NCBI GenBank assembly: GCA_035536395.1
Contig: DATLOE010000006.1
Location: 6,899 to 70,898 of the forward strand
Direction of reading: 5' to 3'
Source: Candidatus Dormiibacterota bacterium
GTDB lineage: Bacteria; Patescibacteriota; Saccharimonadia; UBA4664; DATLOE01
DNA: 64,000 nt
Positions within the stretch are counted from its first letter, which is position 1. Every line of letters starts with the position of its first letter. Both the position numbers and the translations under genes were made by a program. The notes beneath the pieces are model-generated. The model was not told the DNA's origin, searched no databases, and saw only the letters and a program-made list of their open reading frames with translations. Of the stretch, positions 5,504-49,011 are shown piece after piece.

Positions 5504-5579
5504 GCCCTCGTAGCTCAGTGGATAGAGCGCCTCCGTCCTAAGGAGGGCGTCGGGAGTTCGAATCTCTCCGAGGGCGCCA
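5504..5579 (+). tRNA. tRNA-Arg (anticodon CCT)
   Basis: A cloverleaf can be drawn. Acceptor GCCCTCG/CGAGGGC, anticodon stem CCTCC/GGAGG with loop containing CCT, T-loop TTCGAAT, and a 3' CCA. Confidence 0.8.
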
Positions 5580-5599
5580 TGAGCTGTCGCTTGAGCTTT
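5562..5599 (+). repeat. Direct repeat copy 1, covering the 3' end of tRNA-Arg plus ~20 nt of downstream flank. Its partner is at 5726-5762.
   Basis: atctctccgagggcgcca + tgagctgtcgcttgagcttt reappears at 5726 with 18/18 identity followed by 16/19 identity. Confidence 0.8.
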
Positions 5600-5725
5600 T
5601 TCGAGCTATAGCTCATGGTTCGGAGAGTGAGAACTCCCGCTGAGTTCGGTGGACGAGGAGCGCAGGAAATAATGAGCTGGCTCAAATTATTTCCGAGCAC
5701 CGCAGGGAGAAGGCTGCAGGCCGCT

Positions 5726-5762
5726 ATCTCTCCGAGGGCGCCATAAGCTATCGCTTGGCTTT
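5726..5762 (+). repeat. Direct repeat copy 2, a partial duplicate of the tRNA-Arg 3' end. It forms an attR-like scar 163 bp downstream of the gene.
   Basis: atctctccgagggcgccataagctatcgcttggcttt. It contains the tRNA T-arm 3' half, acceptor 3' half, discriminator and CCA. Confidence 0.8.
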
Positions 5763-5847
5763 TCCTGTATGACAAATCTTTGCAAACAACACTTCTTATG
5801 CCAGAATGGGTATGTCTGATCTTTGAATTTACAAAGGAGTTGTTGTG

Positions 5848-6147
5848 ATGCTCCGCACGGTAGAACAAGAACAATCACCGACAACCTGTAGCCACGGAAT
5901 TTTGATACGCGGCTCGGGTATGAAGCTGGGCATTTCTAGCATTAACCTGCCCGAAAGAAGGATTTGCGTCTCCTGCGGAAAGACCGAAACGGCCGATGAG
6001 GACGGATTTTTCAAAAACCTGACGGTCGAGCCCGTACGTACGGTCTCGCTGCAAGAACTCACTCACTATCAAGGCGACCATCCAAATGCCGTGCGGCTGC
6101 GAGAAGAAGTGGCAGATGAGGGGCACATAATAAGGGGCGCGGAGTAA
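5848..6147 (+). CDS. Hypothetical small protein with putative zinc-binding residues (C14/H16 ... CxxC)
   Basis: AAGGAG RBS 8 nt upstream of the ATG at 5848 (the ORF track starts at GTG 5845). 99 aa. Followed by an intrinsic terminator. Confidence 0.5.
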   Translation: MLRTVEQEQSPTTCSHGILIRGSGMKLGISSINLPERRICVSCGKTETADEDGFFKNLTVEPVRTVSLQELTHYQGDHPNAVRLREEVADEGHIIRGAE

Positions 6148-6157
6148 TAAGATCGGC

Positions 6158-6190
6158 AAGGCGGGCTATAATAGGCCCGCCTTTTTCATT
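6158..6190 (+). terminator. Rho-independent terminator
   Basis: aaggcgggctataataggcccgcctttttcatt. A GC stem of 8-9 bp is followed by a T-run. Confidence 0.7.
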
Positions 6191-6225
6191 GGCGAAAATC
6201 CTTACGCCTGCATTACAATATAGAT

Positions 6226-6753
6226 ATGGAAAAAAAGTTTGAACCGGAATTTCCCGGCCAACATCAAGATGAAAAGATAGAACTGGTATTTCGTCAGCAC
6301 CCCATTGTACTCAGAAAAGAGCTGATAATAGGGCTGCTTATTATACTAGCCGGTACCGGCCCGCTGTTGCTTTTTCCGCTGTCGGATCTGGCCATGAAGA
6401 TCTTAATAGCCAGCCCCATAATCACCTTGGCCTACTGGTTCTACCATTGGATCGGCTGGCACTATAGTATTAATATTCTCACCGATAGCCGGCTAATATC
6501 CATTAAGCAAAGAGGCTTCTTTAATCGTAAAGTAAGTGAGGTGGGGCTAGATAGGGTGCAATCGATTAATTACCATATTAAAGGCCTGCAGGCAGCTCTG
6601 TTTAAGTTCGGCGATATTACCGTGCAGACTTTTAGTGGGGAGTGGCTAATGAAATCTATTAGCCATCCGGTAGAAACACATACCAAAATGATAGAAGTAG
6701 CCAGAAAAGTCTCCAAGGAGTTTGTACCTACCTCGACAGTGCCCGATAAATAA
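6226..6753 (+). CDS. Membrane protein with bacterial PH (bPH_2/YdbT-like) domain
   Basis: 175 aa. Two N-terminal TM helices are followed by a region resembling bPH_2 domains. Confidence 0.4.
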   Translation: MEKKFEPEFPGQHQDEKIELVFRQHPIVLRKELIIGLLIILAGTGPLLLFPLSDLAMKILIASPIITLAYWFYHWIGWHYSINILTDSRLISIKQRGFFNRKVSEVGLDRVQSINYHIKGLQAALFKFGDITVQTFSGEWLMKSISHPVETHTKMIEVARKVSKEFVPTSTVPDK

Positions 6754-6809
6754 GGTAGATTAAATATTAACGTAACCGCAAACAGCGGCTAATTAAATGG
6801 AGTGGTATA

Positions 6810-7847
6810 TTGAGCGAAGACAGCAAGCGTAAAACCGGCCGGAAATCACCAGCAAAGAAAACATCAGCCAAAAAAACTTCGGCGGTAGCTAGCGCCACGG
6901 TAATGCCTTCGGGTACAGGTCAGAGGCGCCTGACTGACGATAATCGCAGAGCGCTTTTGATTGCAGCTGCTATTATTTCAGCCCTGCTAGCCATATTCTT
7001 AATCGTTTTTGGTGTACTGATTTACAAATATAAGAGTGATAGCCGAGCAGTTCAGCTGGCGGCAGCCATTGTGCCTTACCCGGCCGAAAAGGTGAATGGT
7101 AGTTTTATAACTTATAGTGATTACCTATTTGAAGTTAATTCGATTAAGCACTACTACTTAAGCCAAACCACCCCCGACAATAAGCCAGCTATAGATTTTA
7201 ATACCCCCGAAGGCAAGACACGACTCAAGGAGCTGCAAAAACAGGTACTAGAGCAGCTCAAGAGTGATGCTGTCGTGAGGCAGCTGGCTAATAAGAATAA
7301 GATATCTGTATCTGACAAAGAGGTAAAAGAACAAGTAGACCAAATTACTAAATCTGCCGGCGGGGAAGCTAAGGTAAAAGAAGTGCTGAAGAAATTCTAT
7401 GGTTGGGATACTGGCGACCTGAAGAAAAAGATTCACTTCCAGCTGCTTAAGCAAAAGCTGGCTACAAAGATTAGCAGTGATGAGACTTCTAACGCCCAAG
7501 CCAAGGCCAAGGCTGAAGATGTCTTGAAGCAGGTTAAGGCCGGCACCGACTTTGCCGAGCTGGCTAAGAAACATTCTCAAGATTCAACTGCCGCAAATGG
7601 CGGAGACCTGGGGCTGTTTGGCAAAGGGCAGATGGTGCCTGAATTCGAAAACGCCGCCTTTGCGCTGCAGCCAGGGCAGACCTCTGAGATAGTTAAGACC
7701 AAATTCGGTTATCACATCATTAAGGTGACTGAAAAGAAAGATGACCAAGTGAAGGCCTCTCACATCTTAATTAAAGCCATCGATTTCGATCAGTACCTAA
7801 AGGATGAACTGGCTAAGGCCAAAGTTACCCAATACATCAAAATTTAG
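6810..7847 (+). CDS. Membrane-anchored parvulin-type peptidyl-prolyl isomerase (PrsA/SurA-like)
   Basis: TTG start with a GGAGTGG RBS. Basic N-terminus plus one TM. The C-terminal PpiC domain [21 protein letters not shown]...GYHIIKV is typical of parvulins. Confidence 0.75.
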
Positions 7848-7859
7848 GTAGGGTTTAAT

Positions 7860-9047
7860 ATGTGGCACCTGCCTTCACAGAGTTTTCATCTTTTTAAACT
7901 GACCGACCTACGCGAAATGTACGCGGCGGAAATGATCAAATTCCTCTCGCTAGGCTTGGTCGGTATATTCATTCCTATATACCTCTACACTAAAGGCGTA
8001 CCGCTGACTCTAATTATTGCTTTTTTGCTGTGGTCGACTATTTTACAGATTGGAGCGGCCTGGCTAGGGGGTAGCCTCATACCCAAGTATGGGGTTAAGC
8101 ATCTTTTGGGTGCCTCCTTTATTCTGGCTTTTGCTTATTTACTGGCCCTGGCGGCCTTTAATCAGGTATGGGTATTGTTTGCGGTTATTGCTCCGCTGTA
8201 CGCGGTAGCAGAGAGCTTCCATTCTGTCGCGTATCACTATGAATTCTCTAAGGTTAAAGATGCGGACCATAGCGGCCAGCAGTTGAGTAATGTAACAATC
8301 ATGGTTCATCTAGCCGCGGCCATCGGGCCGTTTTTAGGAGGCGTGATTGGTGCCATTTACGGTTTACAAATGACTCTTTTCGTTTGCCTCGGGCTTATGG
8401 TGCTAGGTATCGGCCCGTTATTTGCCACACGAGATATCAAACCCAGACACAAGCTTGATATGAGTAAAATCAGCTTAATGAAAATAAAGAATGATTTAAT
8501 TAGTTATAGCGGACGAGGCTTGGAGTATGTAGTTACGCTGCTAGTGTGGCCGCTATTTATGTTCCTATTCCTCGGCAGTCTGGTGGAGGTTGGAGCCGTG
8601 ACCACAGTAGCTCTAATGCTCACACTTTTTGCCAGCTACTTTATCGGGCGGCTGACCGATCGGGGCTATAGGGCGCGGCTGATAAGAATCGGCAGCATTA
8701 GTAATGCGATGGCTAATGTAGCCAGGATGCTAGTAACCGGACTAGGCTCAATACTTGCGGTTAATATCTTTAGCGATATCACTCGCGCCATAGTGCGCAT
8801 TGCCTGGGGGGCGCAGTATTATAGCAATGCCGACCGCCACAGTCGTCTGGAATACATCGTGGCGATGGAGCTGGCTGCTTACTCAGGAAGGGTACTGCTG
8901 TTTGCGGCTATGTTGGCTGCTAGCATAGTGGCTTCTGCCAAGGCAATATTCATAGCTGCCTTTGCCGTTACCGCCCTGGGCATGCTTTTGGTAATGAAAA
9001 TTGATCAGAAGGCCAAGCGCACTAAAATCTACGTCGGGCATTATTAA
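7860..9047 (+). CDS. Polytopic membrane transporter (MFS-like)
   Basis: 395 aa with about 12 predicted TM helices. No recognisable catalytic motif. Confidence 0.45.
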   Translation: MWHLPSQSFHLFKLTDLREMYAAEMIKFLSLGLVGIFIPIYLYTKGVPLTLIIAFLLWSTILQIGAAWLGGSLIPKYGVKHLLGASFILAFAYLLALAAFNQVWVLFAVIAPLYAVAESFHSVAYHYEFSKVKDADHSGQQLSNVTIMVHLAAAIGPFLGGVIGAIYGLQMTLFVCLGLMVLGIGPLFATRDIKPRHKLDMSKISLMKIKNDLISYSGRGLEYVVTLLVWPLFMFLFLGSLVEVGAVTTVALMLTLFASYFIGRLTDRGYRARLIRIGSISNAMANVARMLVTGLGSILAVNIFSDITRAIVRIAWGAQYYSNADRHSRLEYIVAMELAAYSGRVLLFAAMLAASIVASAKAIFIAAFAVTALGMLLVMKIDQKAKRTKIYVGHY

Positions 9048-9216
9048 AGGAAAACCCCCGAGTGTCCATACTCAGGGGTTATTGGAGGATACCGTTGGTT
9101 ATTAAGCAATTCTTCGGGTCTTTGATGCCGTGCGCGATTAAAAGCGTAAAAGCATGGCCTAGAGCCTTTTCAAAGGGCATCAGGTATAGCTCCACAGTCT
9201 TCTAAGGGTAAAATTA

Positions 9217-9621
9217 CTAGCTTCTGCCAGTAGTAGGCTTGTCATTATTCAGGTCCGAAGCCAATAACTTGACCAAGCCTTCATCCAGGCAACTCCGTGT
9301 AGCCTCCGCCAGTTCTTCGATAAATTCCTGATTCAGGCGGTAGAAATGCTTTAATGCTCCCCTCCGCGGCTCGATTCTGGTCATCTTGATTAGACCGTTG
9401 TCCGCCAGCCACCGGAAGTGATAACTGATACTGCCTAGCCGCCCCCGCCCCGTAATAGTTGCTGCCACCTCTACCGGGCTCATCTCAGTTAACTTGGTCG
9501 CTTTCATGATCTCTATACGCAGGGGATGCGAAAGGGCTGCTCCCAATAAAACTATCTTTGCTATATCGTCCTCGGAAGTATTAGTCCCGATCTTTGCTAG
9601 CTGTGCGGGGGTCATTTCCAC
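9217..9621 (-). CDS. Winged-helix transcriptional regulator (ArsR/MarR-like)
   Basis: 134 aa. HTH-like region LTEMSPVEVAATITGRGRLGSISYHFRWLADNGLI. Confidence 0.5.
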   Translation of the reverse strand: MEMTPAQLAKIGTNTSEDDIAKIVLLGAALSHPLRIEIMKATKLTEMSPVEVAATITGRGRLGSISYHFRWLADNGLIKMTRIEPRRGALKHFYRLNQEFIEELAEATRSCLDEGLVKLLASDLNNDKPTTGRS

Positions 9622-9758
9622 CCTTCTATATCAGAATTTTCAAGGTAAAGGGTCATTTAAGCTATAAATCAGCTTTTTTGCAAGCATAAGAAAAACCCAG
9701 CATAGCATTATTGTCAGGTAGGTGGCTTTTTGGTAGTATTAATCAGTTAATTTGACGC

Positions 9759-9835
9759 GGGCTCGTGGTGTAGAGGCCTAACACGCCTCCCTGTCACGGA
9801 GGAGATCGCCGGTTCGAATCCGGTCGGGCCCGCCA
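9759..9835 (+). tRNA. tRNA-Asp (anticodon GTC)
   Basis: Acceptor GGGCTCG/CGGGCCC, anticodon loop CTGTCAC, T-loop TTCGAAT, 3' CCA. Followed by the hairpin gaaaagcg...cgcttttc and a T-run. Confidence 0.8.
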
Positions 9836-9927
9836 AGAAAAGCGTATGACTTTGTGTCGTGCGCTTTTCTTGTGTGCCAACACTATTCGGACTGGTGAAG
9901 CCGGGGCGTAAAATAAGCGGAGTGTAA

Positions 9928-9950
9928 TTTCTCGAATCCGGTCGGACCCC
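9928..9950 (+). repeat. Partial duplicate of the tRNA-Asp 3' end, from T-loop to acceptor, about 95 bp downstream of the gene
   Basis: ttctcgaatccggtcggacccc versus the tRNA sequence ttcgaatccggtcgggcccgcca, with a 14-nt identical core. Confidence 0.65.
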
Positions 9951-9968
9951 TTATGTTATATTTGTGGC

Positions 9969-11131: not shown

Positions 11132-11216
11132 CAGTTTTAGTGTGTGAGCTCCACACGATTAGGACAGCATGAGCACATTGAATGCTTTTTCAGGGTGCGC
11201 TATAATGCACTATAAT

Positions 11217-11516: not shown

Positions 11517-11517
11517 A

Positions 11518-12407: not shown

Positions 12408-12427
12408 CTGGAGCGGGTAGCGGGAAT
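12408..12427 (-). repeat. 20-nt duplicate of the tRNA-Gly 3' end, covering T-stem, acceptor, CCA and one further nucleotide. It lies 157 bp downstream of the gene.
   Basis: ctggagcgggtagcgggaat is identical to 12565-12584. The intervening segment has a terminator hairpin and a T-arm-like hairpin gcgggaagcgaacccgc. Confidence 0.75.
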
Positions 12428-12565
12428 GTGGCTGCACCACCTCCGCAAAGTGCTCGCCAAATTCCTGCAAGCAGTATTTGTCTGCGCGCTTTGCTGCACC
12501 GAACCCTGCGGGTTCGCTTCCCGCTTACCTCAACAAAAACGGCCACGCATGGTGACCGTCTTTGC

Positions 12566-12639
12566 TGGAGCGGGTAGCGGGAATCGAACCCGCCTCTCGA
12601 CCTTGGGAAGGTCGCATTCTACCGATGAACTATACCCGC
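12566..12639 (-). tRNA. tRNA-Gly (anticodon CCC)
   Basis: The reverse complement reads gcgggtatagttcatcggtagaatgcgaccttcccaaggtcgagaggcgggttcgattcccgctacccgctcca. Confidence 0.8.
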
Positions 12640-12640
12640 A

Positions 12641-12716
12641 TGGAGCCGATGAGCGGGATCGAACCGCTGACCTATGCTTTACGAAAGCATTGCTCTGCCA
12701 GCTGAGCTACATCGGC
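12641..12716 (-). tRNA. tRNA-Thr (anticodon CGT)
   Basis: The reverse complement reads gccgatgtagctcagctggcagagcaatgctttcgtaaagcataggtcagcggttcgatcccgctcatcggctcca. It is in tandem with tRNA-Gly. Confidence 0.8.
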
Positions 12717-19189: not shown

Positions 19190-19226
19190 CTTCTAGGGGC
19201 CGAACGAGTAGTTTGGCCCCTTAACT
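19190..19226. terminator. Bidirectional terminator between convergent genes
   Basis: ggggccgaacgagtagtttggcccc followed by a T-run. Confidence 0.6.
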
Positions 19227-20465
19227 TTTTAAGGCCAGCGCGGTATCAGGGGCATTGCCAAAGCCAACTTGATCTATAATCTTTCCGCCTAGCAACTGCC
19301 TAGCCGGTTTAATAGTATTACGACCGAAGCGCAGATCTATTTCGTCTAGTGCCTCACTTAACTTTTCGGCTTTATCTGTTGGATCAAATAACCTTAGGGT
19401 AGTGGCCTGGATAGGAATTAGGTCGGTAGCCGTAACCGAAACCAGCCTGACCGGGCGGGGAGGGGACCAGCCCGCCAGTATTTTTTGGACATGCGCAAAA
19501 AAGGTGCTGGAATCAAAGAAGGGAGATCTGGTCTTTAAAGTTTTGCCCCAATAGGATCTATCCGCAAACCGCACATATACCGTTACAGATTGTGCGGCCA
19601 GCCCGGAGGCTCTCAGTCGTACAGCGGCTTTGTAGGTTAGCCGGCTGGCCACGCTTAAAACCTCTCCCGTGGTACTGGCCGGCCGGGGAATAATGGTGTT
19701 CTGGTGGCCAATCATTCTTCGCTTAGTTACGGCTAAATCGACCTCATAGCCCCGTAGGCGCAGATACCAGCGCTCACCATTAACACCCAGTCGGCTTTTC
19801 AGCAGAGAGTAAGGTGCTTGATAGAAATCGAGCGGTGTCTGAATACCCATAGAGCCTAGGCGCCTGGCCATCCGCCAGCTGATACCATGCAGATCAGTTA
19901 GTTTTAAAATAGAGTAAAAACCCTCAAGATCTTCTAGCTTAATCTCAATTAAACCATTGGGTTTATATATATTGGTAGCCATTTTGGCTAAGAAGCGATT
20001 ACTGGCAATCCCGACCGAGCATTGCAGATGGCTGCCTATGGTTCGAATAATATTCTTTACTTCTTCTGCCAGCTTTAAGCCTTCGCCCAGCAGGTCTCTG
20101 GGTACTAGCAAGAGGGCTTCATCTATACTTTGTACTCTAACCTGGCACCGGGTCTGCTCTAAAGCCGACATAATACGGCGGTGGTAATCCCGGTAGAGCC
20201 TGGCATTATTCTCTACTAGCTGAATATGCGGGCAAAGGCGCCTGGCCTTGGCTATATTAGTACCCGTCTTAACTCCGTACCGCTTAGCTTCGTAAGAGGC
20301 AGCAATGACACAGGTGGCATCACCGACAAAAGGACAAACTCCTACCGGCTTACCGCGCAGTTGAGGGTTTTCTTGCTGTTCGACCGAGGCAAAGAATGAG
20401 TTCATGTCTATAAATAGAGCTCGACCTTGCCTCGGCTGCTGTTTTAGTAAACCCTCTATATCCAC
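19221..20465 (-). CDS. dinB: Y-family DNA polymerase (DinB/Pol IV-like)
   Basis: ALFIDMNSFFASVEQQENPQLRGKPVGVC...IAASYEAKRYGVKTG is the canonical Y-family N-terminus. Confidence 0.8.
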   Translation of the reverse strand: MDIEGLLKQQPRQGRALFIDMNSFFASVEQQENPQLRGKPVGVCPFVGDATCVIAASYEAKRYGVKTGTNIAKARRLCPHIQLVENNARLYRDYHRRIMSALEQTRCQVRVQSIDEALLLVPRDLLGEGLKLAEEVKNIIRTIGSHLQCSVGIASNRFLAKMATNIYKPNGLIEIKLEDLEGFYSILKLTDLHGISWRMARRLGSMGIQTPLDFYQAPYSLLKSRLGVNGERWYLRLRGYEVDLAVTKRRMIGHQNTIIPRPASTTGEVLSVASRLTYKAAVRLRASGLAAQSVTVYVRFADRSYWGKTLKTRSPFFDSSTFFAHVQKILAGWSPPRPVRLVSVTATDLIPIQATTLRLFDPTDKAEKLSEALDEIDLRFGRNTIKPARQLLGGKIIDQVGFGNAPDTALALKS

Positions 20466-20865: not shown

Positions 20866-22074
20866 TTATGCCTTATGAAGTACAGGTGATTCCGGCTCAG
20901 TGTCTTGGTAAAACATCAGCCCTAGCTTTATCTGCAATGCATCATCAAATACACGGGGATCGAGGCCTATAACCTTCTTAGTTTTATCAAGCCGGTATAT
21001 TAATGTATTGCGGTGGACATGCAGAAGCCCGGCAGCTTCGGTTAGGTTCAGCCCCGAGGTCAGGAAGGTTCTAACGGTTTTATAGAGCTGCTCATCTTTT
21101 AAGAGGGGGTATAAAATCTGGTGCGCTAACTCGGCCTTGCGCTCCTGGGTTACATTAGCCAGGGTAACGAACATCCCTACGCTCTTAATATGGTAAACCG
21201 TATCATTACCCCAAACCTTAGTGCCGACGTGAAGAGAGAGCTTGGCCTCTTGGTAGCTCTTACGTAAGCCCCCCAGATCGGGGTAGTACTGTCCCACTCC
21301 TAGCGATACGGTTTTGTCAGGATACTGTTTTTTCAGAATCCCATATACATACTCAGCCTTTTCGATTAAGAAACGCATAGTATTGCGAATGGTTAATCCT
21401 TCCCCTCCAATACCCTTTGAGAGCACAAAGGTATCACCACCCAAGTAGCAGCAGATATTTCCGGGATGGTTATTGAATGCTCCTAAAACAGTTTGGGTGA
21501 TATCATCGGCAGCCTGGGCGATTTTAAGCTCCTGTTCATCTGCCGAAATGCTTCCAAGCTGGCTGCGAATACCCTCCTGAAAGCCGTTAATTTCAATCAA
21601 AATAATGGCTTGCGGCATACGCAGGTTAAGCTGTAAAACGTCAGCTTGGCGGTAGGTTTCTGTATGACTGCCGCGTGCTGTGGTTAGTACTTGCTTAAAG
21701 AATTTGGCCCGCACGGTGGCCGATGGCTGGATATGCCTCATAAGGAAGTATTGGTGAGTAATGACTTCGGCCAGCCCCTGCAGCAGACTGATAGCTTCGG
21801 GCGTAATCGGCCCTTCATTTCCTTCTATAATTCCAAAAGCACCGACTGTCTGCCCATCATACACAAAAGGACACCAGGCAATTTGGCTTTCACCTAAAAA
21901 GGAGCGGACGATCTTGCCTTCCTGGCATGACCTAAGCGCGTCAACCATAATCTGGCCGGTGTAATCTTGGCTGGCCTGTACCAAGCCTTGAGCATCGGCT
22001 ACCAGTACCGTTCGATCCAAGATGCCTTTGGCTCTTTCTAATATCTGATCTGCTAGAGGTTGCCCGATTCTCAT
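20866..22074 (-). CDS. CdaR/PucR-family transcriptional regulator
   Basis: C-terminal HVHRNTLIYRLDKTKKVIGLDPRVFDDALQIKLGL is a PucR-type HTH. The middle region is a GGDEF-like domain as in CdaR. Confidence 0.7.
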   Translation of the reverse strand: MRIGQPLADQILERAKGILDRTVLVADAQGLVQASQDYTGQIMVDALRSCQEGKIVRSFLGESQIAWCPFVYDGQTVGAFGIIEGNEGPITPEAISLLQGLAEVITHQYFLMRHIQPSATVRAKFFKQVLTTARGSHTETYRQADVLQLNLRMPQAIILIEINGFQEGIRSQLGSISADEQELKIAQAADDITQTVLGAFNNHPGNICCYLGGDTFVLSKGIGGEGLTIRNTMRFLIEKAEYVYGILKKQYPDKTVSLGVGQYYPDLGGLRKSYQEAKLSLHVGTKVWGNDTVYHIKSVGMFVTLANVTQERKAELAHQILYPLLKDEQLYKTVRTFLTSGLNLTEAAGLLHVHRNTLIYRLDKTKKVIGLDPRVFDDALQIKLGLMFYQDTEPESPVLHKA

Positions 22075-23207
22075 TTCTGGCCTACGAATTTATTAAACAG
22101 AATCGCTAGCTTAATTTGTACAGCGTCCTCAAAGCTGCGAGGATCCAGGCCAAGCGTTTCAGCAATGCGATCTAGCCGGTACACCAAAGTGTTGCGGTGA
22201 ATGTTTAGCTCGCCAGCGGTCTGGGTGAGACCCATATTGTTTTTAAAGAAAGTCTCAAGTGTTTCTATTACACCGCCGTTCTGGCCTAATTTTTCTAGCA
22301 GTTCACGGCTGAAGTAAATATTACTTTCGTCTATACCTGACAGCAGAGGGGCGACTACCCCAAAGTCGTCAATGTGGTAAACCCGATCTTTATCCCAATT
22401 CTGCGCCCCTAGCTCAATGGCTGAGACTGCTTCCTGGTAGCTGGTGCGTAGGCCGGAAACGCCTGGGTGATAATTGCCAACCCCGACAGTAGCTGTGACT
22501 TTGAGCTCCGATTTCAGAATGCCATAGATGGTATTAATCGATTTTTTAAACTTCTCTAGGTTTTCGCCCAGATCACTATCAGTGCTGTCTATATCTTTTA
22601 AAATACAGAATACATTCTGCCCCAAGTAGGCAATGACATTCCTTCGAGTAGAAGTATAGTAGGAGTTTAGGGCTCGGTTGATGTTGAATTTATAACGCGA
22701 AATTCTTAGCTCACGGTCACCTTCGTCCCTGGTCTCGCCGGTTAGTATGGGGTCGTCTATATAAATGGTAATGGCAATCCGCGGGCCGGTAAGCTCTATG
22801 TCGAATAGCCTAGCTTCGGCTATTAGCATACGGTCGCCATCGCTTTCGGAATTGAGTAAGTCGTATACGAATTTATCGAGCCGTTCTTCTTGCTGGGGGA
22901 GCTGCTCAATTAAGGCTGATTGGTGCACTATCAGTTCAGCGATCGAGCGAATGAGAGGGGCGATTTCTTCTTGGTTAGGCATCTGAGAGGCTAGTACTAC
23001 GTAGCCAGCTACATCACTGTTGTAGAGAATGTCGATTGCATGAGGGTGCTTTTCTACTTCTACGCTTTCCTCTACCAGGGGATCATTACTAGCCAGCACA
23101 GCACCCTCTGGGCTTACAACCGATATCGGCTGGTTGACTAAGCCCGCAACCTTGCCCTGAATCTTTTCTGCTATATGGTGATTAAGCACCATTGGCGTTC
23201 CCCTCAT
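22071..23207 (-). CDS. CdaR/PucR-family transcriptional regulator, a paralog of the downstream gene
   Basis: C-terminal NIHRNTLVYRLDRIAETLGLDPRSFEDAVQIKLAILF. Same architecture as the neighbour. Start and stop overlap as ATGA. Confidence 0.7.
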   Translation of the reverse strand: MRGTPMVLNHHIAEKIQGKVAGLVNQPISVVSPEGAVLASNDPLVEESVEVEKHPHAIDILYNSDVAGYVVLASQMPNQEEIAPLIRSIAELIVHQSALIEQLPQQEERLDKFVYDLLNSESDGDRMLIAEARLFDIELTGPRIAITIYIDDPILTGETRDEGDRELRISRYKFNINRALNSYYTSTRRNVIAYLGQNVFCILKDIDSTDSDLGENLEKFKKSINTIYGILKSELKVTATVGVGNYHPGVSGLRTSYQEAVSAIELGAQNWDKDRVYHIDDFGVVAPLLSGIDESNIYFSRELLEKLGQNGGVIETLETFFKNNMGLTQTAGELNIHRNTLVYRLDRIAETLGLDPRSFEDAVQIKLAILFNKFVGQK

Positions 23208-23332: not shown

Positions 23333-23866
23333 CTAACCGCTTTTACCGGTGGCTGGAGTGTCGGCCTTGACCTCCACTGGATCTATATAAAAGCGTTCCT
23401 TGGGCGGGTTAAACACCACGCCATCGACTTTCTTGGCAAAGTCAGGCTCTTTAAGGAGTTCCGCTTTTTTAAGGCTGAAACTGGTCTTAATGAAGTCCTT
23501 AGCTCTTTTGAGCTTGCGGATGCTGGCTATGGCTTTTTTATCATCAGTGCCTTCCAGGCTGGCCTTACCATGCTTCCAACTCAGTTTACCCGTTGGCAGG
23601 CTGATGGTTTTACCTTCTGCTAGCATCGATCGGTTGGCTACCGCGAATGTTTCCAGGCTGGCCTCTAACTGCTCACGCTCTTCTTGCAAAGCGCTGATCT
23701 GGCTCAATGCCTTGAACTGCAGCGTCTCAATTTCATCATTCAGCTTAATTCCGATCGATGAAATTTCCCGGCTGACTTCACCGTAGCGGGCGAGTTCTTC
23801 GCAAGCCTTGTCTATCTGCTCCTTGCTGGCTGTTTTACTTTCAATACCCTTGGTTGCCCTGGGCAT
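23333..23866 (-). CDS. gam: Mu Gam-like host-nuclease inhibitor, a Ku-like DNA-end-binding protein
   Basis: The ~175-aa coiled-coil protein aligns with phage Mu Gam. Ours FAVANRSMLAEGKTISLPTGKLSWKHGKASL matches Mu WCEANRDELTNGGKVKTANLVTGDVSWRVRPPSV. Ours RKLKRAKDFIKTSFSLKKAELLKEP matches Mu LERLGLQRFIRTKQEINKEAILLEP. Confidence 0.7.
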   Translation of the reverse strand: MPRATKGIESKTASKEQIDKACEELARYGEVSREISSIGIKLNDEIETLQFKALSQISALQEEREQLEASLETFAVANRSMLAEGKTISLPTGKLSWKHGKASLEGTDDKKAIASIRKLKRAKDFIKTSFSLKKAELLKEPDFAKKVDGVVFNPPKERFYIDPVEVKADTPATGKSG

Positions 23867-36128: not shown

Positions 36129-36533
36129 GGCTAGATTGCCAGATGGCCGCCCGTAAATTACGGGAGGAAAGTCCGGACAGCATAGAGCAATGACGGTTGC
36201 TAACGGCAACCGGGAGTAAGTTCGAGCATTATTTCTCTCGAGAAAATGATACTTGAGCCAAGCCTAGGGAAAGTGCCACAGAAACGATACCGCCCAGCTT
36301 GCTGGGTAAGGGTGAAAAGAGTGGGGCAAGAGCCCACAACTTCGGTTGGTGACAACCGAAGGAGGTAAACCCCGTCTGCTGCAAGGCTGCCAGCCATACG
36401 CGATTGCTCGTCGCGGCTGGCGTGAGTGCCGCTTGAGCCGATCAGCAATGCTCGGCCCAGATAGATGGTCATCCAACCCGGTCCGCCAGTTGGTGGAGCG
36501 GGGGACAGAATCCGGCTTATAAGCAATCTAGCC
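36129..36533 (+). ncRNA. rnpB: RNase P RNA (bacterial type A)
   Basis: The P1 helix ggctagattgc pairs with gcaatctagcc. Conserved GGGAGGAAAGTCCGGAC, AAGGGTGAAAAGAGTGGGGCAAGAGCCCAC and ACAGAATCCGGCTTATAAG elements are present. Confidence 0.85.
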
Positions 36534-36563
36534 AGAAAGCCTCTAGGGGCTTTCTGTTTTTTG
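36534..36563 (+). terminator. Rho-independent terminator after rnpB
   Basis: agaaagcctctaggggctttctgtttttt. Confidence 0.7.
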
Positions 36564-43853: not shown

Positions 43854-43980
43854 TTTATTTCTCCGCCGCCCGTTAATTAGTAATAAAACGATGTTAGCGA
43901 ACAAAAAGCGAACTGTCAAATGTCTTATGTTGTCAATGCTTATTTACAAATGCTACAAATCAGCGTACAATCTATAAGCT

Positions 43981-44781: not shown

Positions 44782-44795
44782 GTTAAAACTTGTAG

Positions 44796-44824
44796 TTGAC
44801 TTTAAGCCGTAATAGGAGTACAAT
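44796..44824 (+). promoter_or_regulatory. Consensus sigma70 promoter (-35 TTGACT, 17-nt spacer, -10 TACAAT) driving a non-coding transcript
   Basis: ttgactttaagccgtaataggagtacaat. Confidence 0.6.
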
Positions 44825-44829
44825 CGGTT

Positions 44830-45277
44830 TTGTCTCTTTGGCATCGGCCTATGGTTTATGCCAAAAGAAGTGCAGTACAAAAAGCTTCTTCGCCCCGTCG
44901 AAGAAGCCGACCAGGCAAGGAGAGTGGGATGCCATGTTCGGTCTGTAGATCGACACGCACATGGCGCCCCCGCTGAAAGCGGTTTCTTCACGGCTACCTA
45001 GCTGTAGTTCCGCTTCGGCGGGGCGTCAAAGACTTCTTCTGCCTATGCTGTCGCTTAGGAGTGACGCCCCGCGCGTCAGCTAAGGGAAGAAGACAGGGAA
45101 TCCTGAGCATGGACTGCCGGGCCAAGGATTGGCTCGAGAGTCACCTCAGGAACCCATTGCACCGAGCGGCGCCGGGGATCGGTCCCAAGGACTTTGTCCA
45201 AAAGACCGTCCCCGGCCACGCTTCTCAACTTTGAGCTTTTAGCTCTCAGTAACCTCCAGTTCTGCTGGAGGTTTTTC
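44830..45277 (+). ncRNA. Candidate structured ncRNA of unknown family, about 450 nt
   Basis: A promoter lies upstream, and the intrinsic terminator cctccagttctgctggaggttttt lies at 45253-45276. It contains GC-rich hairpins with GAAA and UUCG tetraloops (cccgctgaaagcgg, ccgcttcggcgg) but no credible ORF. Confidence 0.45.
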
Positions 45278-45331
45278 AATATAAGCTCCTTGGACCGGTT
45301 TAGTCTATCGGCTCTGGATATATCAGGGTTT

Positions 45332-46639
45332 TTACTTTTTAGGCAGGCGCGCAGGTAGTCTAAACCGTCTTTTAGGCGGTTTTTTAGCGTTAATATGGCC
45401 CTTTAGTACCGTTTCATACAGTCTGGCCAGTTGCTTGGCTTGGCGCTCGGCAGAGTACTTAGCCGCAAGCTTAATGCTGGCTTCACCCATATCCTGGCGC
45501 AGCCGATCGTTCGTCAGCACCTGGCTGAGTCTTCGGGCAAAGCTGCGCGCGTTATTACGGGAGAATAGACCATTAACCTTATCTATAACTACATTAGTGA
45601 TGTCGTGATCGATCATAACAATCGGCAATCCGGCCCAAGCCGCTTCCTGGATAACCAGGCCTTGGGTGTCGGTGGTGGAAGGGAAGGCAAAGACGGTGGC
45701 TACCTTATAGGCTGCCCCCAGCCGACTTCTTTCTATTCGGCCGGTAAATACGACGCGATCGGCTACACCCAGGTTCTTAGCCTGCCTCACCAGCTTGTCC
45801 TGCTTCTCGTGGCGGCCGATTAATACCAGCTTAGCCTTAGGGTGGCTGGGCGCAATTATAGCAAAGGCGGTAATTAACAGATCCACGCTTTTTTCATCTC
45901 CCAGCCGGCCGACGAAGAGGATTACCTGATCGCTCTCTTTTAACCCATATCTCTCACGGAACAGCTTAGCAGCCCTAGTGGTCGTAGTAATTTTGTCAAC
46001 ACCTGTCGGTAAAACCCTGATTAAAGACTTGGTTTTCCACGATCGCAGCTGCTGCTCGATTTTGATAGAGGGTACAATAACCCGATCACAATAGTTATGC
46101 AGCATAGTAATGCCTTTAACGATTATTTTCTGATTCCAGGCATCCACATTACGTTCCGGCTTTATGCTGCTTAGAGCAAATCGTAGGTCGTCCATTTTGC
46201 CCCCGGTAATTAAAGGGGAAAGCATAGAAAGGGCAATCGCGCCAGGCAAGACCTGGGGGTAGTAAGTAACGTACTCATATAAGTCTGAGTGATAGGTGGT
46301 AACAAGGGGTTTGCGGTTGTGTATGGCGTAGTAGGCTCCTAGTAGGCCGATTTGGCCAGGGGTATGGTAATGCACGATGTCAGGGTTTATCTTTTTTATC
46401 TTCAGCAGAGCCTGCGGGGGGAAGAATATACTAGTCAGATAGTCATCGAATACCAGGCCCTTGACTGCCGGAAACCTAAGGATGTTAGGGGATTTCTCCT
46501 TATAACGAAGCCCAGGAGCCGGGGCGATCACGTGAACCTCGTGGCCCAGCTTTTCCAGCTCAACCCGAAAAGTCTCTATGGAGTAAGCTACTCCATCAGC
46601 TCTGGGCAGGTATGAATCTGTGAAAAAAGCTATTTTCAT
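45332..46639 (-). CDS. GT4-family glycosyltransferase
   Basis: MKIAFFTDSYLPRADGVAYSIETF... The GT-B fold has the C-terminal E-x7-E region. Confidence 0.75.
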   Translation of the reverse strand: MKIAFFTDSYLPRADGVAYSIETFRVELEKLGHEVHVIAPAPGLRYKEKSPNILRFPAVKGLVFDDYLTSIFFPPQALLKIKKINPDIVHYHTPGQIGLLGAYYAIHNRKPLVTTYHSDLYEYVTYYPQVLPGAIALSMLSPLITGGKMDDLRFALSSIKPERNVDAWNQKIIVKGITMLHNYCDRVIVPSIKIEQQLRSWKTKSLIRVLPTGVDKITTTTRAAKLFRERYGLKESDQVILFVGRLGDEKSVDLLITAFAIIAPSHPKAKLVLIGRHEKQDKLVRQAKNLGVADRVVFTGRIERSRLGAAYKVATVFAFPSTTDTQGLVIQEAAWAGLPIVMIDHDITNVVIDKVNGLFSRNNARSFARRLSQVLTNDRLRQDMGEASIKLAAKYSAERQAKQLARLYETVLKGHINAKKPPKRRFRLPARLPKK

Positions 46640-47652
46640 TTACTAGCTATTAGTTGTCGGTATAGTCTGCATAGTTGCTTGGCTCCGCTGGCATTATCGA
46701 ACTTGGTGGCAATTGCGCGTGATAACTCAACTGCCTCCCTATAGTATACCTGGTTGTCGTGAAGGCGTTGCACTATATGCGCAAAGGTCTTGTCTGTGCC
46801 GCGAAGAATATCTTGGCCAAAGTTAGAATCGTAAGAGGGGATATCTCTAACGACAATAGGCAGGCCGGCGGCGGCGGCTTCTAGTACAGCTAATGGGTGT
46901 CCTTCCCGATTGGAGGGCATAATAAACACATCGGCAGCCCAGTAGTACTGCTTGACCTCGCTATGCTCAAGGGGGCCAATAGTACTCATATTTGCTGGCT
47001 GCTTGTGCGTAAGCTCTAGCATATCCTTATAACTGGCACTTAGGTGTTTGAACGGCGTACCGCCAATCCAAATGAATCTGAAGCCCGGAAACTGCTTTGC
47101 AAGACTCAAAAAGCTCTCATACCGCTTGGTGGGGTTAATCTGCCCGACAGACAGTACGATGAAGTCAGTGGATCCAAGCCCCAGCTTTTGCCGGGCCAGC
47201 CGCTTACCATCTTTCGCCGGTTTATATTGGGCTGTATCGACCGTATTGGGTATTACGGTAATCTTATCTGACTTTATTCCAAGCTTTCTAATCAAGCTTT
47301 GCTCTACTTCTTCCGATATCGCTATGATTTTGTCTGCGCGGTTGTAGAAAAATTTTAGGTACCAAGCCGCCAGACGATACCAGTACTTAGCTCCGGCTAC
47401 CGTTCCCACGAAAGCGTCTGGCACAACGTGGGCCGTTACGACCTTTTTGTTGCCACCCAACACGAGCGCCACTAGGCCGTACGGGCCAGTAGTGTGCACG
47501 TGCGTAATGTCAGCGGATCCCAGTTGGTTAACTCTAACCAGGACATCATTACGCTCACCCAGGGCCAGTACATGCTCTCTAAAGGCTGTATCGACCCCAT
47601 GCCCACCAATAGAAAAGGCCGATTCAGAAATAATATTTACTTTCAGTTTCAT
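46636..47652 (-). CDS. GT4-family glycosyltransferase
   Basis: 338 aa GT-B. NREGHPLAVLEAAAAGLPIV. Confidence 0.7.
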   Translation of the reverse strand: MKLKVNIISESAFSIGGHGVDTAFREHVLALGERNDVLVRVNQLGSADITHVHTTGPYGLVALVLGGNKKVVTAHVVPDAFVGTVAGAKYWYRLAAWYLKFFYNRADKIIAISEEVEQSLIRKLGIKSDKITVIPNTVDTAQYKPAKDGKRLARQKLGLGSTDFIVLSVGQINPTKRYESFLSLAKQFPGFRFIWIGGTPFKHLSASYKDMLELTHKQPANMSTIGPLEHSEVKQYYWAADVFIMPSNREGHPLAVLEAAAAGLPIVVRDIPSYDSNFGQDILRGTDKTFAHIVQRLHDNQVYYREAVELSRAIATKFDNASGAKQLCRLYRQLIASK

Positions 47653-47725
47653 ATAATAATCGCGGTTTTATAACAAGAAATTAGGCACTGGGCTATATTG
47701 TACTAAAAATTATAGTAATAAAACA

Positions 47726-47760
47726 AAAACCGGAGGCTAGCTGCCTCCGGTTGCAGTAGA
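47726..47760. terminator. Rho-independent terminator, usable in both directions
   Basis: aaaaaccggaggctagctgcctccggtt. Confidence 0.65.
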
Positions 47761-47770
47761 ACCGCACTAA

Positions 47771-47989
47771 CTACATGCGGTCTTCTTGGCCAGGTTCGGT
47801 TTCCTCTCCCTCAGTACCAGAGTGATCTAATTGCTCCCCAAAAGTTGGGTGGTTTTTTGTTTCTTCTCCAGAAAACTCTTCTTGAAGAGCGTCATTTAGC
47901 TCCGGATCCGCGTTTTGCTGGGCATCTCTTTTAATTTGTTCGCCAAACTCCATTCCCTCTGCGTCTTCACATTTCTGGTCTTGTGCCAT
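47771..47989 (-). CDS. Small highly acidic, probably disordered protein
   Basis: Perfect AAGGAGA RBS. 72 aa with about 35% Asp/Glu. Confidence 0.45.
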   Translation of the reverse strand: MAQDQKCEDAEGMEFGEQIKRDAQQNADPELNDALQEEFSGEETKNHPTFGEQLDHSGTEGEETEPGQEDRM

Positions 47990-48105
47990 ACTGTCTCCTT
48001 TTAATTACTTGGGTATTATTTTAACGGTATTACAGATAAGGGAGGTAGTTGCAGGCTCACAAAATAGCTCGCTCTCACAAGCGGATTTTTGGCAAAACTG
48101 GCACA

Positions 48106-48146
48106 AAAACACACCAGTTTGAACTGATGCGTTTTTGGTGGAGCTG
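48106..48146 (-). repeat. Distal copy of the tmRNA 3'-end direct repeat (att-like)
   Basis: aaaaacacaccagtttgaactgatgcgtttttggtggagctg versus 48594-48634. A 25-nt perfect core aactgatgcgtttttggtggagctg is shared. Confidence 0.8.
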
Positions 48147-48247
48147 AGTTAACCCGGCCTGAGATATCATAACTATTACGCCCCGCCGGTTATCCGACGA
48201 GGCGTTTGCTGGTTTGTCATATATGAGGGTCCTAGCACATCTTCACT

Positions 48248-48499
48248 TCATTTGTTCAGCAGCCATATGCCTATTCCAGCTGGCACTAAAGCAGCCGCCC
48301 ATTGGCCCATGACAACCAAAGCAACTGCTATGGCGAGGTTGCCAAGTACAATAACTCCGAAGAAGGCAACTAGTAAAAATTCAAGAGGGCCAAGCCCGGA
48401 GCCTGGTGTCGCCCGTGGGCCTTCCTGGGTGGAAAAATATGATCCATCTCCTCTTGAGGAGTCACAACCACAACTCGATTCGCAGCCATAACCATGCAT
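48248..48499 (-). CDS. Small Cys-rich membrane protein (two predicted TM helices), the only gene inside the repeat-bounded insert at tmRNA
   Basis: AGGAGTGG RBS precedes the ATG at 48499. MHGYGCESSCGCDSSRGDGSYFSTQEGPRATPGSGLGPLEFLLVAFFGVIVLGNLAIAVALVVMGQWAAALVPAGIGIWLLNK. Confidence 0.5.
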   Translation of the reverse strand: MHGYGCESSCGCDSSRGDGSYFSTQEGPRATPGSGLGPLEFLLVAFFGVIVLGNLAIAVALVVMGQWAAALVPAGIGIWLLNK

Positions 48500-48623
48500 T
48501 TCCACTCCTAATGCTCTGTTGTTAAGGTGGCAAGATGTTACCACCAACCTGATAATTGGTCAACATTCATACACTGGGGGTATTAGTGGCAACAAAAAAG
48601 CACCAGATAAACTGATGCGTTTT

Positions 48624-49011
48624 TGGTGGAGCTGCGGGGAATTGCACCCCGGTCCGAAAGCTAACAAAATGTTCTTCTACAGGCTTAGACCGCTTAGCTG
48701 GGGTAAGCCCCGCTTAGGTAACGATCTGTAAGCGGACCAAATAACCGTTACTGCAGCCTAATGTCTTAAAAGCAGCCGTTAGGCGCCAGCTGCTTAGCAG
48801 CCAGAAAATATAACACCGGCGAGCCCCCATCTGGCGTCAGGTGCCGATGGCTTACGGGTTTAAGCGTAAGCTGGTGCGAGCTGAAGACCGCTAAAAGCAG
48901 TCTTAACCCGCGAAACAATCGAGTTGACGGTTGTTTATGGGTGGATTTAACGCATTCCTGCGGCCTGCAAAACAAATTGAAAATGTACTTTCGTCGAAGC
49001 TTATCAGCCCC
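48624..49011 (-). ncRNA. ssrA: tmRNA (SsrA)
   Basis: The 5' end GGGGCTGATAAGCTTCGACG and the 3' end GGACCGGGGTGCAATTCCCCGCAGCTCCACCA closely match the E. coli tmRNA ends (GGGGCUGAUUCUGGAUUCGACGG ... GGGUUCAACUCCCGCCAGCUCCACCA). The tag reading frame was not confidently resolved. Confidence 0.8.

Follow-up and report, generated by a model that had tools for sequence, protein, structure and literature searches.

Mobile DNA classically inserts at transfer RNA (tRNA) genes. Integrase islands at these sites reportedly have as their classical signature a direct repeat of the stretch between the T-loop and the 3' end of the gene, the ssrA islands of Dehalococcoides are integrase-borne islands of the transfer-messenger RNA (tmRNA) gene and, to our knowledge, every well-understood insertion at a tRNA gene relies on a recombinase, the element's own or a borrowed one, that is specific to a single site. 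Here we analyse a 64-kb stretch of a Saccharimonadia genome (Patescibacteriota; contig DATLOE010000006.1; 64,000 nucleotides (nt), hereafter the window) in which four stable-RNA genes are followed by partial copies of their own 3' ends, and report that the spacers behind two of them, tRNA-Arg(CCT) and tRNA-Gly(CCC), are two copies of an apparently undescribed, Patescibacteria-wide family of ~170-nt non-coding modules. As in integrase islands, the 3' part of a tRNA or tmRNA gene is occupied, the gene stays intact, a partial 3' copy is displaced downstream, and tandem arrays are split by 3'-end copies. Unlike those islands, the modules have no integrase inside or nearby, measure only ~170 nt, sit behind at least 15 tRNA identities, and contain a covarying core, an antisense copy of the T-arm and a downstream tRNA copy whose T-loop is interrupted. 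Of the features that define such islands, the direct repeat of the 3' part is thus present and an integrase within the element is absent; the modules are not tied to one attB, their sublocation at nt 57/58 being constant.

ARAGORN and Rfam placed eight tRNA- or tmRNA-type genes and one RNase P RNA in the window, and downstream repeats were sought by reading the sequence and by an exhaustive exact-match search downstream of each gene. Copies of the 3' end follow four of the genes:

5504-5579, plus strand: tRNA-Arg(CCT); exact 18-nt copy of its 3' end at 5726-5743
9759-9835, plus strand: tRNA-Asp; copy at 9932-9949 (14 nt exact, 18 nt at 94% identity)
12566-12639, minus strand: tRNA-Gly(CCC); exact 19-nt copy of its 3' end at 12427-12409
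48624-49011, minus strand: tmRNA; 48-nt repeat of 77% identity, 48587-48634 against 48099-48146

The tmRNA repeat comprises 12 nt of the gene together with its terminator, with a start-to-start spacing of 488. The probability of finding an exact 14-19-mer within 2 kb by chance is of the order of 1e-4 or less per gene, and the four downstream 3'-end copies are real, far beyond chance. An earlier note, made from the letters of this DNA alone, had singled out these same four genes, and its observation is borne out by repeats of 18 (Arg), 18 (Asp), 19 (Gly) and 48 nt (tmRNA); the spacer range of 95-490 bp that it quoted agrees with measured spacers of ~146 (Arg), ~96 (Asp), ~138 (Gly) and ~476 nt (tmRNA). 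It had also listed tRNA-Val and the two tRNA-Pro genes as lacking such a repeat, and indeed the exact-match search returned no downstream match of at least 12 nt for any of them, nor for tRNA-Thr or the RNase P RNA. That no integrase lies inside the four spacers was likewise correct, the 96-476-nt intervals holding no such open reading frame (ORF). The further claim that all four loci share the same architecture holds for tRNA-Arg and tRNA-Gly, whose spacers have a homologous core, and fails for the tmRNA, which lacks the core, and for tRNA-Asp, which has at most a relic of it.

Alignment of the Arg and Gly spacers brought out a common motif consisting of GTTCGGTG, 8-9 nt, GCGCAG, a hairpin of different sequence in the two, CGAGCAC, 5 nt, GGAG, a small hairpin and the tRNA copy. 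Since this GTTCGGTG motif is shared, with exactly two occurrences in the window and 0.00 expected by chance, the two spacers are homologous. We refer to them as element 1, behind tRNA-Arg(CCT) (T-loop TTCGAAT), and element 2, behind tRNA-Gly(CCC), and to their parts as hairpin f, X', the restarted sense copy, the core and the repeat R:

5577-5618, plus strand: element 1, hairpin f, with arms CCATGAGCT / AGCTCATGG and the CCA of the tRNA inside the stem
5620-5639, plus strand: element 1, X', antisense copy of the tRNA-Arg T-arm and 3 nt of the acceptor, TCGGAGAGTGAGAACTCCCG
5642-5648, plus strand: element 1, restart of the sense copy, GAG + TTCG, equal to tRNA nt 51-57
5649-5725, plus strand: element 1, core of subtype A, GTG-GA-CGAGGA-GCGCAG, P5 hairpin, CGAGCAC-CGCAG-GGAG, P6 hairpin
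5726-5743, plus strand: element 1, R, direct copy of tRNA-Arg nt 59-76, ATCTCTCCGAGGGCGCCA
12534-12565, minus strand: element 2, hairpin f, terminator-like, GACGGTCAC..GTGGCCGT followed by a T-run
12508-12529, minus strand: element 2, X', antisense copy of the tRNA-Gly T-arm and acceptor, GGTAAGCGGGAAGCGAACCCGC
12500-12506, minus strand: element 2, restart of the sense copy, GGG + TTCG, equal to tRNA nt 51-57
12428-12499, minus strand: element 2, core of subtype B, with a 6-bp P4 (GCAAAG/CTTTGC)
12409-12427, minus strand: element 2, R, direct copy of tRNA-Gly nt 58-76, ATTCCCGCTACCCGCTCCA

The X' of element 1 matches the reverse complement of the tRNA-Arg 3' third at 18 of 21 positions in a local alignment. 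That of element 2 matches 20 of 21 tRNA positions with one extra base, and its own tRNA ranks first among all the tRNAs tested.

Related loci (numbered L001 onwards) were collected with a strict form of the motif that required GTTCG at the core edge. A scan of species-representative genomes yielded 27 loci, 25 of them true copies, nearly all in metagenome-assembled genomes (MAGs) of Saccharibacteria and other Patescibacteria and two of them chance matches, and a scan of metagenomes yielded 21, comprising 15 true copies and six chance matches in GC-rich coding DNA; the chance matches L014 (Citrobacter), L020 (Acidimicrobiaceae), L038, L042, L046-L048 and L052 were discarded. Among viral contigs searched with a looser pattern, six of seven matches were attributable to chance in GC-rich coding DNA, and L007, located beside a phage tRNA-Gln, was set aside as it has neither GGAG, P6 nor a repeat and no match to the covariance model was reported for it. 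This model (CM R1), built from 37 distinct copies, matches element 1 at 5631-5732 (84.3 bits, E 6e-20) and element 2 at 12420-12517 (68.1 bits, E 9e-16), finds no other copy in the window, and recovers every collected copy plus an additional one, a convergent copy behind tRNA-Val in L013. In that locus (557-1092) a plus-strand element behind tRNA-Leu(GAG) and a minus-strand element behind tRNA-Val(TAC) stand tail to tail and together fill the whole intergenic space. A tandem pair is found behind tRNA-Ser(CGA) in L010 (7076-7405), where the tRNA-proximal copy is a diverged variant with a shorter core (GTTCGTGAGCGAGCTCTGCGCA...CGAGCACAGAGCGAAG) that the model search, run with default filters and E up to 1, did not report; because this variant was missed, the family must be broader than sampled. 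The host tRNAs represent at least 15 identities, including Ala, Arg (four anticodons), Cys, Gln (two), Glu, Gly, Leu (two), Met, Phe, Pro, Ser (two) and Val. Neither spacer matches Rfam 15 at the gathering threshold or at E up to 5, and no other Rfam family was found in five related loci; BLAST against annotated phages and plasmids gave no match, and full-text searches of the literature turned up no corresponding element. Clustering of ORFs of at least 120 amino acids (aa) from the 8-kb flanks of ~45 loci revealed no recurring protein family beyond what synteny accounts for.

Several of these loci can be compared directly. Judging from flanking proteins, L032 is orthologous to the tRNA-Arg locus of the window and L019 to its tRNA-Thr/Gly locus, and at both sites the core subtypes differ (A in the window and B in L032 for Arg; B in the window and A in L019 for Gly), which points to core exchange by recombination. 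The orthology of these loci places the window in a Saccharibacteria-like organism. Near-identical cores occur behind different tRNAs in different MAGs (L008 and L031). L008 is a recombinant between two copies, in which hairpin and X' are those of a tRNA-Ala copy of the kind seen in L044, the core resembles that of L031 and the repeat is of the Arg type, and mismatched arms are found in the recombinant copies L008, L022 and L024. An element stands behind tRNA-Arg(TCT) in L025 and is lacking in the same tRNA cluster in L018, the flanks being too diverged to yield exact boundaries. Exact-protein look-ups of the nucleoside diphosphate kinase (NDK) and of the ORF adjacent to tRNA-Thr gave only short same-sample contigs ending at tRNAs, and no strain polymorphism was obtained from them. 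Two such contigs (L035 and L036, from SRR8544467), which encode proteins identical to those of the window, end within ~65 and ~160 nt of the flanking genes, at tRNA-Arg and tRNA-Thr; element-bearing tRNA loci break short-read assemblies. In L027 (158-240), CCCCTGCCA units stand in series behind the repeat and give way to Ns; this is either an artefact of assembly or an expansion of the tRNA tail copy that resembles a microsatellite.

In every locus with a recognisable upstream tRNA, the tRNA strand reads tRNA, hairpin f, X', a gap of 1-4 nt, the restarted sense copy, the core and a copy of tRNA nt 58/59-76, the whole locus being direct, inverted, direct for the 3' third of the tRNA. Hairpin f starts at or inside the CCA and usually has an A-tract and a T-tract, with the CCA paired to TGG; a hairpin embracing the CCA is present at 12 of 29 element-bearing tRNAs versus one of 28 element-free ones, the single exception being the tRNA-Asp of the window. 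X', the antisense T-arm copy, ends opposite tRNA nt 48/49 in both window copies. The restarted sense copy, which begins at about nt 48-51 and consists of 2-6 nt of the 5' T-stem strand followed by TTCG, is significantly local (0 of 5000 permutations). In most copies the core follows the tRNA end on the same strand at a distance of 54-71 nt, and the repeat begins 18 or 19 nt from the tRNA 3' end; from this start and the TTCG restart it follows that the core splits the T-loop of a second, partial copy of the tRNA between G57 and A58. The duplicated segment measures 18-19 nt, sometimes 32-56 nt, and in some loci includes the terminator (56 nt in L015; L044). Behind the tRNA-Arg of the window, imperfect similarity to the post-tRNA sequence extends to ~5763, ~20 nt past the CCA, for a duplication of ~32 nt.

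The adjacent tRNA is the best match of the repeat in 23 of 26 copies and the best match of X' in only ~7 of 26. In a freshwater clade, tRNA-Gln(CTG) and tRNA-Gln(TTG) are followed by hairpin, X' and core sequences that share over 90% identity between the two genes, and the repeat is of the local type at each. Because the module is shared and the repeat is local, hairpin f, X' and core appear to travel, or to be homogenised, together, with the repeat representing target DNA. All 29 element-bearing tRNAs have a TTCG T-loop, as compared with 17 TTCG and 10 TTCA among the element-free tRNAs of the same loci (Fisher p ~1e-4); both element-free tRNA-Pro genes of the window are of the TTCA type.

The core itself (~75-95 nt) is unrelated to tRNA sequence. 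A column-wise covariation scan was defeated by the gaps of MAFFT alignments and was replaced by tests of individual helices in copies parsed by invariant anchors. The predicted fold is a long irregular hairpin made of P4, an internal loop (GCGCAG/CGAGCA) and P5, followed by the small hairpin P6. In P4, the nucleotides following GGTG-N-A would pair with a 6-nt segment whose first base is the final C of CGAGCAC: in subtype B it forms a 6-bp helix in seven sequences (54 Watson-Crick and 5 G.U pairs at 72 positions), and in subtype A (CGAGG/CCGC(A)G) C:G is replaced by T:A (L026, L030), G:C by G.U (L018) and A.G by T:A (L045). P5 is a hairpin of 25-32 nt (mean z -2.8 against shuffles for 35 distinct sequences) and P6 a 3-7-bp hairpin immediately 5' of the repeat, whose stem changes among G:C, C:G and T:A. 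Pairing within copies exceeds pairing between copies in the outer (6.16 vs 4.52) and inner (5.38 vs 4.03) parts of P5 and in P6 (4.59 vs 3.70). Summed minimum free energies (MFE) are lower for the sense than for the antisense strand both in P5 (-246.7 vs -210.6 kcal/mol, with 19 vs 10 G.U pairs) and in P6 (-186.6 vs -163.2), and since the sense strand folds better, the constraint acts on a single strand of tRNA-sense polarity, either RNA or single-stranded DNA (ssDNA). GCGCAG and CGAGCA between P4 and P5 are invariant, as are the junctions GGTG-N-A and GGAG, which suggests a binding surface. The tRNA-derived segments could add two further helices, P2 (GAACC/GGTTC, between X' and the restarted copy), which is generic, and P1 (X' with the repeat), present in the MFE fold of both window copies; P1, P2 and the core together would be a four-helix, cloverleaf-like layout with an ...NCCA tail. 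A GUUCG/CGAGC plus GUG/CGC helix proposed by RNAalifold on MAFFT alignments involves only invariant columns, finds no support either way and was not adopted; resemblances to a K-turn, to group II domain V and to integron attC core sites were checked by eye and rejected.

The tRNA-Asp and tmRNA loci are organised differently. Neither spacer contains the conserved core or a match to the covariance model, and their repeats bracket other small inserts at the same type of site as the Arg and Gly modules:

9759-9953, plus strand: tRNA-Asp locus, with the tRNA at 9759-9835, a CCA-embracing hairpin at 9834-9872, an X'-like stretch at 9888-9908 and a repeat of tRNA nt 55-72 at 9932-9949
48099-49011, minus strand: tmRNA locus, with an insert between the repeat copies that carries an ORF for an 83-aa membrane protein at 48248-48499

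The tRNA-Asp spacer, which reads hairpin, X'-like stretch, a short tail with GCGGAG and then the repeat, resembles 96-nt mini-units seen elsewhere in the family (L021, below), and is possibly a core-less relative, to judge by eye from its X' resemblance and this comparison. The tmRNA insert measures 488 bp, and its 83-aa ORF, Cys-rich and double-membrane-span-like, has its own Shine-Dalgarno and promoter-like sequences and matches no Pfam family. The tag peptide predicted for this tmRNA is unusual (VNSIVSRVKTAFSGLQLAPAYA).

In freshwater contigs, copies of the tRNA-Gln 3' end bracket further inserts that have neither core nor integrase: a 1-kb segment with TspO (L041), a 1.85-kb segment with a lyase and an AlaX-like protein (L056), and a 3-kb segment with a subtilase accompanied by 96-nt tandem mini-units (L021). 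A fourth insert bracketed in this way, a 4.4-kb island of small ORFs, precedes the element in L050 and follows it in L057. A Pfam scan of 10 ORFs from cargo segments revealed no recombinase, reverse transcriptase (RT), HUH enzyme, TnpB or Cas1. The tmRNA insert of the window is of the same kind as these integrase-less cargo cassettes. The mini-units of L021, two to three core-less tandem units located ~3.0-3.1 kb upstream of the core in its orientation, each consist of a terminator hairpin, an X'-like stretch, a small hairpin and a 20-nt copy of the tRNA-Gln(CTG) 3' end.

The interpretation that we favour, and in which we place about half of our confidence, is that the Arg and Gly modules are a non-autonomous mobile element that targets the T-loop and 3' end of tRNA genes, has a structured, single-stranded core and is moved in trans. 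The module would be recognised and handled as a folded single strand, either RNA or ssDNA, its target would be TTCG|A of the T-loop or the tRNA 3' end, and the downstream repeat would be target-derived DNA rather than sequence carried by the element. Recombination or gene conversion between resident copies may then swap their cores, and further integrase-less cassettes may come to accumulate at the repeated 3' ends. The earlier note had offered tiny non-autonomous elements that use tRNA and tmRNA 3' ends as one of two explanations, which comes close for Arg and Gly (a family of at least 40 copies with no recombinase inside or nearby); the tmRNA locus has no core and tRNA-Asp at most a relic.

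A number of points weigh against this interpretation. The TTCG association is partly built into the search, the pattern having demanded GTTCG, which would be a copy of the local T-loop, and the copies are not phylogenetically independent. P1 and P2 are only weakly sequence-specific across the family. No candidate for the trans-acting enzyme is linked to the modules, the only recombinase-type gene of the window being a truncated Xer-like fragment; no exactly alignable pair of empty and filled sites from close genomes was obtained, so that the inserted segment is deduced rather than observed; and no known mechanism reproduces the direct-inverted-direct arrangement on paper. The modules shared between tRNA-Gln genes and the subtype swaps can also be explained by gene conversion between resident copies instead of transposition. 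Finally, MAGs and metagenome contigs, in which repeats may be assembled wrongly, supply nearly all of the data. L009 (1339-1700, in minus-strand orientation of the locus) is an example: on this 3.4-kb contig, a 5' tRNA-Gln fragment runs from its T-loop (GGTTCG) straight into the core within a 183-bp tandem duplication, and an intact tRNA-Gln follows. The arrangement is either a simple form with the core in the T-loop or a misassembly, and the latter possibility led us not to use it as evidence.

Stepwise models of insertion were compared with the junctions. Crossover by a tyrosine integrase would leave the element beside an intact T-loop and restrict it to one tRNA, and homologous integration of the Campbell type would leave hybrid repeats. 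HUH-type insertion 3' of TTCG (peel-and-paste) fits the 57/58 junction for every tRNA and does not fit the duplications. Target-primed reverse transcription, with a nick in the T-loop and a second nick after the CCA, fits a local repeat combined with donor-type f and X', and the left boundary at an RNA-processing site (CCA), the non-conserved left end and the copy limits at nt 48 and 58/59 are compatible with it, which is suggestive only; no RT is in evidence. Snap-back RT and fold-back replication models each fit some of the junctions and none fits all. There is in our view a minor but real chance that the mechanism is of a new type.

Comparison with other described systems is similarly partial. 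Palindrome-associated transposable elements (PATEs) derived from IS200/IS605, and the repetitive extragenic palindromes and their paired forms (REP/REPIN) that depend on RAYT, both of which single-copy HUH transposases mobilise in trans, are likewise small, non-coding, hairpin-rich and intergenic, with no transposase inside; the strand-specific folding observed here suggests a single-stranded substrate, the core follows a fixed TTCG, and putative sub-terminal hairpins lie near both ends (~17-18 nt of the core precede P5, and 0-3 nt separate P6 from the right edge of the core). Those elements, in contrast, neither duplicate nor copy their target, are not tRNA-specific, and carry no antisense target copy; here no HUH gene was identified, neither TnpA (Y1 HUH) nor TnpB being present in the 64-kb window, the TTCG rule is confounded by the search, and the loci do contain duplications. 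Integron attC sites and attP(+) of the CTX phage resemble the modules in that a folded strand rebuilds a target-like duplex with a bulge and, as with integrons, integrase-less cassettes occur in arrays. The modules differ in having a T-arm target and, in place of the bulge, a conserved structured core; GAACC...GGTTCGG (GTTCGGT) does not fit GTTRRRY/RYYYAAC, and neither intI in the flanks nor attI was found. As for miniature inverted-repeat transposable elements, no terminal inverted repeat was seen (the left end is a non-conserved hairpin with X' and the right end is P6), nor any duplication of 2-10 bp.

Retroelements related to tRNA offer a further set of resemblances. The 18-nt primer-binding site of long terminal repeat (LTR) elements, tRNA-derived short interspersed elements (SINEs) and the Mauriceville retroplasmid recall the 18-19 nt that equal tRNA nt 58/59-76, the CCA-ended tRNA-like fold and the left boundary at an RNA-processing site (CCA). 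The copy limits at nt 48 and 58 are a further resemblance, these being classical RT stop regions on modified tRNA. The modules differ from such elements in having neither LTR nor A-tail, a stepwise retro-model misses some of the junctions, and no RT was found in the window or in the scanned flanks. Type V-K CRISPR-associated transposons, which home to positions behind tRNA genes by means of a short tRNA-matching guide, are similar in that a scaffold-like structured RNA is followed by an ~18-19-nt match, here to the tRNA 3' end, at a near-constant distance (54-71 nt); they differ in that the modules come with no Cas12k, Tns genes, CRISPR repeats or transposon ends, and the matching segment is most simply a displaced target rather than a guide. 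A group I intron was rejected, there being no Rfam intron match and no conserved terminal G in a 75-95-nt core that lies in the T-loop of a partial copy; the published tRNA introns of Patescibacteria, which are of group I, are far larger and interrupt the gene at position 35/36, and Patescibacteria are reported to lack group II introns (PMC13011429).

A serious rival, unlikely in our estimate and still the strongest of the alternatives, is that the module encodes a domesticated small RNA of the host, with gene conversion spreading the cores. A tRNA-like cloverleaf of ~150 nt would be co-transcribed with the tRNA by read-through of the hairpin, released by tRNA processing at two CCA ends, and would serve the cell in tRNA maturation, in quality control or as a decoy, the copies being old, vertically inherited and homogenised by gene conversion. 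Several structural findings favour this reading: the sense-strand folding advantage with compensatory changes in P4, P5 and P6, the invariant internal-loop and junction sequences suggestive of a binding site, and the position of the module between two tRNA-type 3' ends. In the MFE folds of both window copies, moreover, X' is paired with the repeat and an ...NCCA tail stays free, whereas across the family X' mismatches the local tRNA in most copies, such that this closing helix often cannot form; likewise, read-through would have to pass a strong hairpin with a T-run that separates the tRNA from the putative RNA. The host-RNA reading finds further support in the occupation of orthologous sites (Arg-CCT in the window and L032; Gly-CCC in the window and L019) with apparently orthologous X', and in the retention of the elements in streamlined genomes of ~1 Mb; against it stand the variation of the host tRNA between genomes, over at least 15 identities, the presence or absence of the element between relatives (L025 vs L018) and the many decayed or recombinant copies in which the repeat or P1 is lost (L012, L024, L032, L008).

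Slightly less probable still is that the core belongs to a new kind of mobile RNA, be it tRNA-like, SINE-like or guide-like, that is copied into the tRNA T-loop or 3' end by a trans-encoded enzyme. The 3' end of this RNA, or its flank, would pair with the 3' end of the tRNA gene; the enzyme might be an RT acting by target priming and snap-back synthesis, or a nuclease or ligase specific for RNA or ssDNA structure; and the copy limits at nt 48 and 58/59 could be footprints of reverse transcription on tRNA-shaped templates.

The other explanation of the earlier note, scars of integration and excision by tyrosine integrases, is not supported for the Arg and Gly modules, in view of the at least 15 tRNA identities, the lack of a linked integrase and the structural constraint on the core, and may apply to the tmRNA and Asp inserts and the cargo cassettes of relatives, the first two of which fit islands better than they fit the core family. 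In its most explicit form, in which a crossover in the T-loop was followed by internal deletion that left attL, attR and a conserved remnant of an attP arm (the core), we consider this account improbable. It would make sense of the T-loop-to-3'-end direct repeat, of the 1-4.4-kb cargo that repeats bracket in the arrays of relatives, where one island changes side between L050 and L057, and of the tyrosine recombinase fragment in the window. It sits poorly with the absence of an integrase from every spacer, from every examined cargo segment and, as a recurrent neighbour, from ~45 loci, and with the occurrence of one core family at so many tRNA identities, an integrase/attP pair being normally tied to one site. 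Equally, the repeat is of local type and the remainder of the module is shared, the core occupies the very position where crossover would take place (nt 57/58) and not one beside an intact T-loop, and it displays RNA-like, strand-biased covariation instead of decay.

Spontaneous local duplications by slippage or template switching at hairpins behind stable-RNA genes, with no element involved, are very improbable as a general account: direct-inverted-direct arrangements are typical products of template switching at quasi-palindromes, whole terminators are included in some loci (56 nt in L015, L044, 48 nt at the tmRNA, ~32 nt at Arg) and L021 has 96-nt tandem units, yet a non-tRNA core of ~75-95 nt recurs at the same T-loop position behind many tRNAs and in many genomes, and because this core is shared the explanation is refuted for Arg and Gly.

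What is new here is that, in streamlined genomes of the candidate phyla radiation, many different tRNA genes are followed by a very small non-coding module whose folded core is conserved. The module stands out by its precise geometry (T-loop 57/58, 18-19-nt tail copy, antisense T-arm), by the lack of a matching mechanism and by the lack of a linked partner enzyme, and we assign it conservatively to the known kind of elements that occupy tRNA 3' ends. If mobile, as we favour, it would imply an insertion activity, guided by structure or by RNA, with a feature common to all tRNAs as its recognition site, of relevance to mobile-element biology and to genome-targeting tools; if a host RNA, it would represent a new class of tRNA-linked, tRNA-like RNA in a phylum whose RNA biology is little characterised. 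In either case the copies are dispersed repeats, likely substrates of rearrangements such as the recombinant L008, and can confuse the annotation of tRNAs and islands in MAGs. The covariance model makes a phylum-wide census feasible.

The window has a G+C content of 48% and its housekeeping neighbours include NDK, an M16 peptidase, a peptidyl-prolyl isomerase, ThrRS, MiaA, L25, IF3, ArgRS, an AddA-type helicase-nuclease and glycosyltransferases. Pfam searches of ~50 window ORFs found no RT, HUH enzyme, TnpB, Cas1 or complete integrase. Three further features bear on the loci discussed above:

2-337, minus strand: 5' part of a tyrosine recombinase gene (Xer/integrase-like; Pfam Phage_int_SAM_1, E 4e-14), running off the window
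12641-12716, minus strand: tRNA-Thr(CGT), 1 nt from tRNA-Gly(CCC) (ARAGORN/Rfam)
36131-36535, plus strand: RNase P RNA, complete, bacterial class A (257 bits), ~530 nt downstream of tRNA-Pro(GGG)

The first of these encodes an N-terminal SAM-like domain and is the only recombinase-type gene seen in the window, as the earlier note had proposed for a partial Xer-like gene; the gene is real, its exact position being 2-337 on the minus strand, and nothing observed ties it to the elements. A phage Mu Gam-like protein is encoded at 23333-23866 on the minus strand (E 8e-26) in housekeeping surroundings, adjoining a NUDIX gene and tRNA-Val, and no other phage genes were seen nearby. Two adjacent PucR/CdaR-like paralogues (Diacid_rec + GGDEF_2 + HTH_30) occupy 20866-23207 on the minus strand, with a gene for a DinB/ImpB-type polymerase alongside (19221-20465). 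At 56752-61757, an AddA-like UvrD helicase/PD-(D/E)XK nuclease of 986 aa is encoded divergently from a 679-aa protein with no Pfam match, which is possibly its AddB partner.

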